A DNA stretch of 45,844 nt from Notodromas monacha (lineage: Eukaryota), in the NCBI GenBank assembly GCA_905338405.1, contig CAJPEX010000070.1, forward strand, positions 130,645 through 176,488, written 5' to 3'. Shown one piece after another: positions 32,920 to 34,124 of the stretch. Every line of letters begins with the position of its first letter. The first letter of the stretch is position 1. The translations under genes and the position numbers were made by a program. The notes beneath the pieces are model-generated. The model had not been told where the DNA came from. It saw only the letters and a program-made list of their open reading frames with translations, and did not search any database.

Positions 32920-33402
32920 GTTAGTTTTTGTTTTTCCCTGATCGCATGTACTTGACGTAGAAAGTTTTAATTTCGAGGAAAACGAGCGATTTGATTTACT
33001 AGAAAAGTTCTCGACATCGTGCGGACGAAGCAAAATGCACGTTTCGTTGATTATGAAGCAACCCCTAATTAATAAATTATGTACACCTAGCAAAAATTAA
33101 TGCCCGGCGTACATGAATGACAGAAAAATCTTCAATCTGCCGAACATCAATTTCAAGTTGCATCGCTTCATTGGAATTAATCAGGTGATGCTGAATGTGA
33201 AGGTTTCTTTCAAATCAATACGCACAAAGTTGCGCAGTAGAGGCTACATACTCCCAGAAACTTGCTGACCATTATTTCTTGGTACTTTTGAACAAGCCAT
33301 TTTTAAAATTATTTTGAATTTTCCACATGAAATGCAGTGTTAGAAAAATGTATGCACATTTTTATCAACTGAACAAAGAAACCTTGTTCACTGAGTTTTC
33401 AG

Positions 33403-33697
33403 TGGTTTTGTCGAACGAAGGCCCTTGTTCGAAGTGATTTCTTTGGGCGGGTGAGTAGTCCTCTTTCGTTTTTAATTAATTCCAAACATTTGATGAATCA
33501 GTATAAACATAGATGAATTCGGATTAAAGTAAAGTTCACATTTGACAAAACGAAGTTTAATCTTACGAAGAACGCGAGATGATTTAATCGGTGATCACGA
33601 GTGTGCGGAATGGAATACATGGAACAAAAGTGAAGAGAAAGCAACAAAAATTCAAGAAAAAGAAAAGAAACGGAAAAGATTGTCAAATGAGAGCTGA
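33403..33697 (+). CDS. PCYT2: Tentative 3' exons of PCYT2. Exon 33403-33450 encodes GFVERRPLFEVISLGG. A terminal exon 33571-33697 encodes TRDDLIGDHECAEWNTWNKSEEKATKIQEKEKKRKRLSNES*.
   Basis: The 33403-33450 exon is flanked by the acceptor ttttcAG and the donor GTGAGT. In one frame it gives ERRPLFEVISLGG, resembling human PCYT2 KRRGIFRQIDSGS. The next exon follows the acceptor cttacgaAG. It gives T-R-D-D-L-I-G..., resembling TTDLIVQRI, then a K/E-rich tail like human NQKKEAKE, and a stop at 33695-97. Phase is consistent between these two exons. The exon that should encode ...VIGAPY...HGKTEI... upstream of them was not found. Confidence 0.3.
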
Positions 33698-34124
33698 AAG
33701 AACTACCTTTTCAGCTCGGGATTTGTACGGAATGAAAATGGACTACGTTAAAAGCGCTACAGCCCCGGAGGTTGAAAGTGGTCTCCAATTGCTGTCCCGA
33801 TCAGGGTTTTTTCTCACACCAGTTGCATTTCTTTCACTACTATTTTCTGCGGTTGCCAAGGAAGGTAATTCGGCTCCCCAAATGCGTCGACTATTGCCGA
33901 ACACAGATTAACTTGGCTACAATCTCCAGCCTGAAATGATAAAGAGTAAAATCTCATTGCAAAAAATACCGTCACAACCGTAGAAAGCCCATAGAGTAGA
34001 TGTTAAAGCAGTCTTGTTGAAACAAACTTCCAATTTCCAGTAGAGCAAATTTTCTAAAGAAATGTTTTAGATTTTCAAGGTAGACGTCTCCTGACAAATG
34101 CAGGCAGTCTGTAACTTATGATTA

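Follow-up and report, generated by a model that had tools for sequence, protein, structure and literature searches.

Gene content of the locus

The window, by which we mean the whole stretch of DNA analysed (45,844 nucleotides), is eukaryotic, with ~39% G+C and 0 N. Its + strand carries genes for major vault protein, COP9 signalosome subunit 3 and PCYT2. PCYT2 catalyses the rate-limiting step of the CDP-ethanolamine (Kennedy) pathway and, to our knowledge, is near-universal in animals. The features up to the end of the PCYT2 coding sequence are listed below. All coordinates are positions in the window and CT denotes cytidylyltransferase.

16544-22193, + strand: major vault protein (MVP) gene, complete; human residues 2-850, about 10 exons, introns of 38-1072 bp
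24383-25473 and 28026-28346, + strand: exons of COP9 signalosome subunit 3 (COPS3; PF22788, E=9e-33) and a first exon resembling P-loop uridine kinase/NRK (weak Pfam matches, below curated cut-offs)
29587-29633, + strand: PCYT2 exon 1; ends in phase 2 with donor gtgagt; N-terminus resembles orthologues, e.g. P0001 MSEEKRKPVRVWGDGC; intron position as in Pecten
31015-31265, + strand: PCYT2 exon 2; contains the first CT domain, including HFGH at residues 21-24, KWVDEVV and CDFCVHG; 79.5% identity to human residues 31-113 by tblastn; 174 bits against the orthologue profile
31484-31550, + strand: PCYT2 exon 3; placed by tblastn, splice borders and profile
31619-31859, + strand: PCYT2 exon 4; RTQGVSTT (residues 126-133) and the inter-domain linker; placed by tblastn, splice borders and profile
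32719-32919, + strand: PCYT2 exon 5; opening half of the second CT domain, including HIGH (residues 218-221); last codons ...LSVLACK, phase 0; 65.7% identical to human residues 210-279; 136 bits over profile positions 198-267 of 371

Genes upstream of PCYT2 are spaced at one per 3-5 kb. The COPS3 exon is intact and, with the NRK-like exon, sits between MVP and PCYT2 on the same strand. The closest database matches are 75% identical for PCYT2, 87% for exon 5 and only about 70% for MVP, the last being to rotifers, a cestode and Lingula. Hence, on the MVP matches, the protein collection contains no close relative of the source organism.

The PCYT2 model comprises five GT-AG exons on the + strand (29587-32919; 807 nt, 269 codons). 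Exon 5 is the final PCYT2 coding sequence in the window. Using human PCYT2 as the query (word size 2, E up to 100, both strands), tblastn returned four strong + strand blocks, 31016-31264, 31483-31551, 31602-31865 and 32716-32919, which equate to human residues 31-279. The 269-residue product retrieved 3741 homologues at E <= 1e-20. The best 120 of these are all ECT; they are 64-75% identical, cover 96-100% of the 269 residues and are 348-434 residues long.

Human ECT (PDB 3ELB) matches the product with E=1.9e-121 over residues 5-264 of 341. As described in the initial annotation, the first CT domain and the first half of the second are clear up to 32919. The layout is that of human PCYT2 (3ELB, 4XSV) as far as the middle of domain 2. 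Both domains contain HxGH (HFGH at 21-24, HIGH at 218-221) and domain 1 contains RTQGVSTT (126-133). The first domain is complete in Pfam terms (PF01467, CTP_transf_like; profile positions 2-131 of 133). Two complete tandem PF01467 domains were not found in the product; the second ends at position 267/371 of the orthologue profile, equivalent to 3ELB residue 264/341. In contrast to human ECT, 3ELB residues 265-341, which include VCHG and the second-domain ...TT... helix, have no coding counterpart in the window. Judged by its sequence, the locus is unmistakably a genuine PCYT2/ECT (EC 2.7.7.14) orthologue under selective constraint.

Constraint on the retained exons

The retained frame runs for 807 nt with no stops or frameshifts. 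All 9 splice sites are intact, with canonical GT/AG at every border. We compared the product with the 120 orthologues. Where alignment columns are at least 98% invariant, 93/95 residues are kept, the exceptions being Q30I and I255V. At columns at least 90% conserved the window has 11 changes, Pecten 9 and Branchiostoma 12; the median of 3 reflects the bias of the orthologue set towards arthropods. A count of 11 is within the range seen in the other non-arthropod orthologues compared, which indicates normal purifying selection. Exon 5 scores 136 bits in the window against 144-153 bits in two related loci (L009 and L010, described below).

None of the signs of an old pseudogene (stops, frameshifts, lost splice sites or relaxed substitution) was found in the retained 269 codons. 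Inactivation of long standing is unlikely because purifying selection on the 269 residues is normal.

One residue deserves separate mention. Residue 30, in exon 2 (31015-31265), is the Gln of ...LRQAK... in 120/120 orthologues and is Ile here (FLRIAK). Among the changes at fully invariant columns, Q30I alone is non-conservative.

The C-terminal third of PCYT2 is absent from the window

The C-terminal third of PCYT2, ~100 codons, is absent from both strands of the entire 45.8 kb. The initial annotation had described a missing central exon of ~45 residues followed by detectable later exons. Its observation that YV(S)EVVIGAPY...HG... does not follow 32919 is correct: profile, tblastn and DNA-level searches gave no match. 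The gap, however, is larger than it proposed. Some ~100 residues are gone rather than ~45, because orthologues have 350-390 residues, and both of the later exons prove to be chance matches.

For these searches, we built a profile from everything after ...LSVLAC[KR] in 93 orthologues (105 positions). It was run with all HMMER filters off against every stop-free stretch of 8 aa or more, in the six frames of the entire window. The sole match was to exon 2 (31016-31264, 19.6 bits), where the paralogous half of domain 1 lies. The next best in the six frames, in intron 1, scored 5.7 bits (E about 3). With E up to 100, tblastn with the human query found nothing credible past residue 279 on either strand; the same search with the 120 orthologues, a check that had been proposed, likewise gave only noise downstream of 32919. 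Inverted or permuted exons were also not found in searches of the entire window, both strands included, with the C-terminal and full-protein profiles. The second-domain interface motif (K/R)YVxEVV and the C-terminal helix ...TT..I..RI were not matched in any of the six frames.

In relatives, the segment missing here comprises (K/R)YV(S/N)EVVIGAPY, ...V(C/V)HG..., DPY..PK, ..S..(M/L)TT..I..RI and a K/E-rich tail. According to the internal paralogy seen in comparison with 3ELB, it is equivalent to first-domain residues 70-140 (KWVDEVV...CDFCVHG...RTQGVSTT).

Two candidate exons had been proposed downstream of exon 5:

33403-33450, + strand: 48-nt candidate exon with AG/GT borders; likeness to PCYT2 at chance level
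33571-33697, + strand: candidate K/E-rich terminal exon; low-complexity likeness only

Neither survives as part of PCYT2. In the first, ERRPLFEVISLG shares 5/12 identities with human RRGIFRQIDSGS, a level equalled or exceeded at 36 six-frame positions in the window. The frame is also incompatible. ERRPLFEVISLG lies in frame +1 with respect to the acceptor at 33402, and the phase-0 donor at 32919 would instead give WFCRTKALVRSDFFGR. Against the C-terminal profile the segment does not score (2 bits or less). The second candidate is of low complexity and scores 2.2 bits against the same profile (E about 40 window-wide).

PCYT2 in related loci

We used the Pecten maximus PCYT2 locus (LR736838.1) as a positive control. 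The C-terminal profile was rebuilt without pectinids and applied to this DNA. In Pecten the C-terminus is spread over four or five short exons (22-30 aa), and each was found at 19-44 bits. Hence, the method is able to detect exons as small as these.

Exon 5 on its own, used as a query, led to exon-sized gene calls on genomic contigs, of which eight metagenome/Logan loci were read (L003, L005-L012). Exon 5 is 82-87% identical to these. All have an intron at the same profile position, 267, and their C-terminal exons were detected at 18-129 bits in the profile search. In relatives, the C-terminal ~100 aa of PCYT2 are carried by two to four exons. No neighbouring gene is common to the window and the eight PCYT2 contigs.

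Gene structure is shared up to the break. Pecten introns follow VDGC, CVHG, RYK and LSVLACK as in the window (4/4 positions the same), the last at the identical point, and positions 200/267 are common to L009 and L010. In Pecten and the six contigs that are long enough, exons covering profile positions 265-368 lie within ~40-1400 bp after the LSVLACK intron, whereas the window stops at 267. The next exon of L009 and L010, which have the window's intron pattern, is ~78 aa and scores 114-121 bits; the same would be expected in the window.

These comparisons bear on whether one or more divergent exons were overlooked in 32920-33720, as the initial annotation had allowed. The two weak likenesses described above are all that speaks for this. 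Against it, the filter-free profile, tblastn with human and 120 orthologue queries, and blastn and tblastx with the exon DNA of relatives all returned noise, and the positive control worked. Moreover, an exon equivalent to that of L009 and L010 would be conspicuous at such scores. At the sensitivity of the positive control, an overlooked exon is thus refuted, and we put its chance close to nil. Nor did blastn and tblastx of C-terminal exon DNA from seven loci against 32800-34100 reveal any remnant; only short random matches were obtained.

DNA beyond exon 5

The DNA that follows exon 5 contains the features below.

32920-32955, + strand: exon-5 donor and read-through; canonical GTTAGT at the conserved intron position; the unspliced frame adds 11 codons to TGA at 32953-32955; AATAAA at 33071
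32956-33813, no strand assigned: non-PCYT2 DNA in place of exons 6 onward; no CT-domain coding potential, repeat, TIR or known RNA
34482-36076, - strand: gene X, protein-coding and convergent with PCYT2; conserved blocks 36076-35879, 35514-35350, 34890-34729 and 34652-34485
34876-34732 and 34649-34482, - strand: exon borders of gene X, as predicted from splice signals

Between 32920 and 33800, tandem, direct and inverted repeats were not found, nor was any Rfam family or tRNA. A transposon or repeat insertion at the junction was rejected on the absence of repeats there and of Pfam domains in the long downstream frames. Tetranucleotide composition is alike to the left and right of 32919 (r=0.89-0.95). 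This matching signature on either side rules out a cross-species chimera.

Gene X was compared with 1.84 billion representative proteins using phmmer. It has one true relative, P0241, which is 83% identical to one exon. A second match, P0242, was discarded as spurious, since it is a translated tandem repeat. P0241 is encoded by a Logan contig of a different organism, L002 (SRR12684587, 1.6 kb, 50% G+C). Comparison of L002 with the window by tblastx gave five blocks: 36076-35981, 35941-35879, 35514-35350, 34890-34729 and 34652-34485. Amino-acid identity is 62-82% over the five and about 79-82% in the three downstream (35514-34485). The introns are unalignable. Exon-wise conservation of this kind, with introns that cannot be aligned, is the signature expected of a real gene under selection. 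Gene X has no Pfam or PDB match, no relatives were found in two metagenome scans, and it looks like a lineage-restricted gene. L002 ends before any neighbouring gene. Given that the tetranucleotide signature is shared and gene X is conserved in L002, the sequence past the break is real genic DNA and belongs to the same genome.

The start and last exon of gene X were placed from splice signals and are putative. Its 3' end would be either a read-through stop at 34445-34443 or a stop at 33816-33814, reached through a last exon predicted at 33930-33814. The 3' end of gene X is just 0.9-1.5 kb away from the PCYT2 donor. Gene X may reach 33814 and extend past 36200.

The convergent gene raises the question of a giant intron. 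In such an arrangement exons 6 onward would lie on the + strand past 45844, and intron 5 would span at least 12.9 kb with one or more convergent genes nested inside it. The canonical donor at 32920 would suit this, as would the + strand downstream, which has no recognisable gene content. Furthermore, every long open frame from 33 to 45.8 kb either is on the minus strand or runs antisense to a frame there, which is the usual orientation for nested genes; the minus-strand bias to the right of gene X is suggestive only. However, none of the 13 introns measured (PCYT2 and MVP) exceeds 1381 bp, so intron 5 would be at least 9 times the largest. The same intron is ~40-1400 bp, with nothing nested, in 7/7 related loci that extend past it (Pecten and six contigs), and the upstream genes are spaced every 3-5 kb. 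We consider a giant intron decidedly unlikely.

The product encoded by exons 1-5

As encoded in the window, the product would be 269 aa, or 280 aa with read-through. Exons 1-5 specify the complete first CT domain, the linker and the HIGH-containing first half of the second. Exon 5 with its read-through could serve as a terminal exon. In GCT, CCT and ECT structures, the half of the fold equivalent to the missing segment provides the dimer or pseudo-dimer interface together with the signature helix that binds nucleotide. Consistent with the earlier suspicion that the second CT domain is not intact, the product stops at profile position 267/371. It would thus lack the pseudo-dimer interface strand and the second-domain counterpart of the RTxGVSTT nucleotide-binding helix. 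With both lost, we infer that the 269-aa product should be unable to form the two-domain fold and inactive on its own.

Could a short enzyme nonetheless function? It might consist of the 269-280 residues alone, or of exon 5 joined to a lineage-specific tail such as 33403-33450, which has good AG/GT borders. It would then act through the first CT domain alone or as a regulator. The first domain is complete (PF01467 positions 2-131 of 133), and there is precedent for unequal domains. As cited in PMC10033509, just one of the two CT domains of Plasmodium ECT is reported to be active (Maheshwari 2013), and human ECT to have two CTP-binding motifs of unequal role (Tian 2014). The Plasmodium falciparum enzyme (Maheshwari et al. 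2013, Biochem J 450:159) is a precedent for catalysis by one CT domain, but its second domain is complete and folded.

A parallel is the truncated splice variant mouse Pcyt2-gamma (Pavlovic, Singh & Bakovic 2014), which also has no intact C-terminal CT domain; the 11-codon read-through in the window would yield a similar product. Pcyt2-gamma arises by alternative processing of a complete gene, whereas the window has no downstream exons at all. As cited in PMC6821184, the mouse variant without the C-terminal CT domain is reported to be inactive and repressive (Pavlovic et al. 2014, Gene 543:58).

Several observations stand against a functional short enzyme, besides the reported inactivity of the truncated mouse variant. 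The half-domain exon 5 is conserved as in full-length orthologues, which is expected only if it belongs to a whole second domain. Both domains are present in every non-fragment among the >3700 homologues retrieved. Half of a Rossmann-like domain is unlikely to fold. A functional short enzyme therefore seems very unlikely.

Nature of the break

The locus has the makings of a truncated or assembly-broken gene: part of the coding sequence is absent, unrelated DNA occupies the breakpoint and a convergent gene follows. The most economical reading of the evidence is an ordinary constrained orthologue whose 3' end is not colinear in the window. This would be a locus-level break and not new biology. 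Specifically, we propose that the 3' exons are elsewhere in the genome, colinearity having been broken in intron 5 by an assembly misjoin or omission or in a rearranged haplotype. We give this an about even chance of being correct. The break would lie at about 32920-33800. The organism would make a normal full-length enzyme, with the missing 3' exons at another genomic site. The argument for such a site is that full constraint on a half domain would be hard to explain unless the other half exists. At the junction there are 0 N, no repeat or inverted repeat and no composition shift. Hence, there is no positive sign of a misjoin.

The same contiguity is compatible with a real and recent truncated copy. 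A rearrangement, a deletion or a partial segmental or homeologous duplication with its breakpoint in intron 5 would have left a young unprocessed pseudogene, with an intact PCYT2 elsewhere. The sequence is continuous across the junction, where no gap, no repeat and no change in composition was seen. The in-frame stop 11 codons past the donor, with AATAAA at 33071, would allow a short transcript. Two changes fall at fully invariant columns (Q30I and I255V), and two or more such changes occur in just 11/120 orthologues. A recent real truncation would also appear identical to broken colinearity. Conversely, there is zero decay in 807 nt of coding sequence and 9 splice sites, and overall conservation is like that of other non-arthropod orthologues. 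In addition, MVP and the COPS3 exon are intact, so a truncated copy would have to be very young or lie within a large duplication. On balance, we regard a recent truncated copy as possible, if on the unlikely side.

A more exotic arrangement is a split PCYT2, with 5' and 3' parts at separate loci that are either trans-spliced or translated into two complementing polypeptides that rebuild the second CT domain. A split gene would explain a constrained half domain beside an unrelated convergent gene; we judge it extremely unlikely.

If a PCYT2 truncation were real and affected the sole copy, this would be an animal without canonical ECT, or with an enzyme that works with one and a half domains. 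On the preferred reading of broken colinearity, the locus serves as an assembly and annotation flag; a gene model built here would come out fragmented.

Other features of the window

Three minus-strand frames to the right of gene X were noted. The first, at 43333-43884, has 184 codons and contains 3.4 copies of a 45-nt (15-codon) repeat at 43523-43690 with ...KASSPANL... units. The second, at 38299-38916, is an S/G/T-rich frame of 206 codons. Pfam gave no match for either, and together they suggest genes for low-complexity proteins. The third, at 41433-41807, has 125 codons and a weak FA_desaturase match (22 bits, E=1.3e-4, below the curated cut-off), which is probably a transmembrane-segment artefact.

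Between MVP and COPS3 lies a foldback-like element (23202-23726). Its inverted arms, 23202-23288 and 23638-23726, are 88-90% complementary and flank a unit of ~62 nt that is repeated four times in tandem (23351-23600). The element may be a MITE or foldback transposon.
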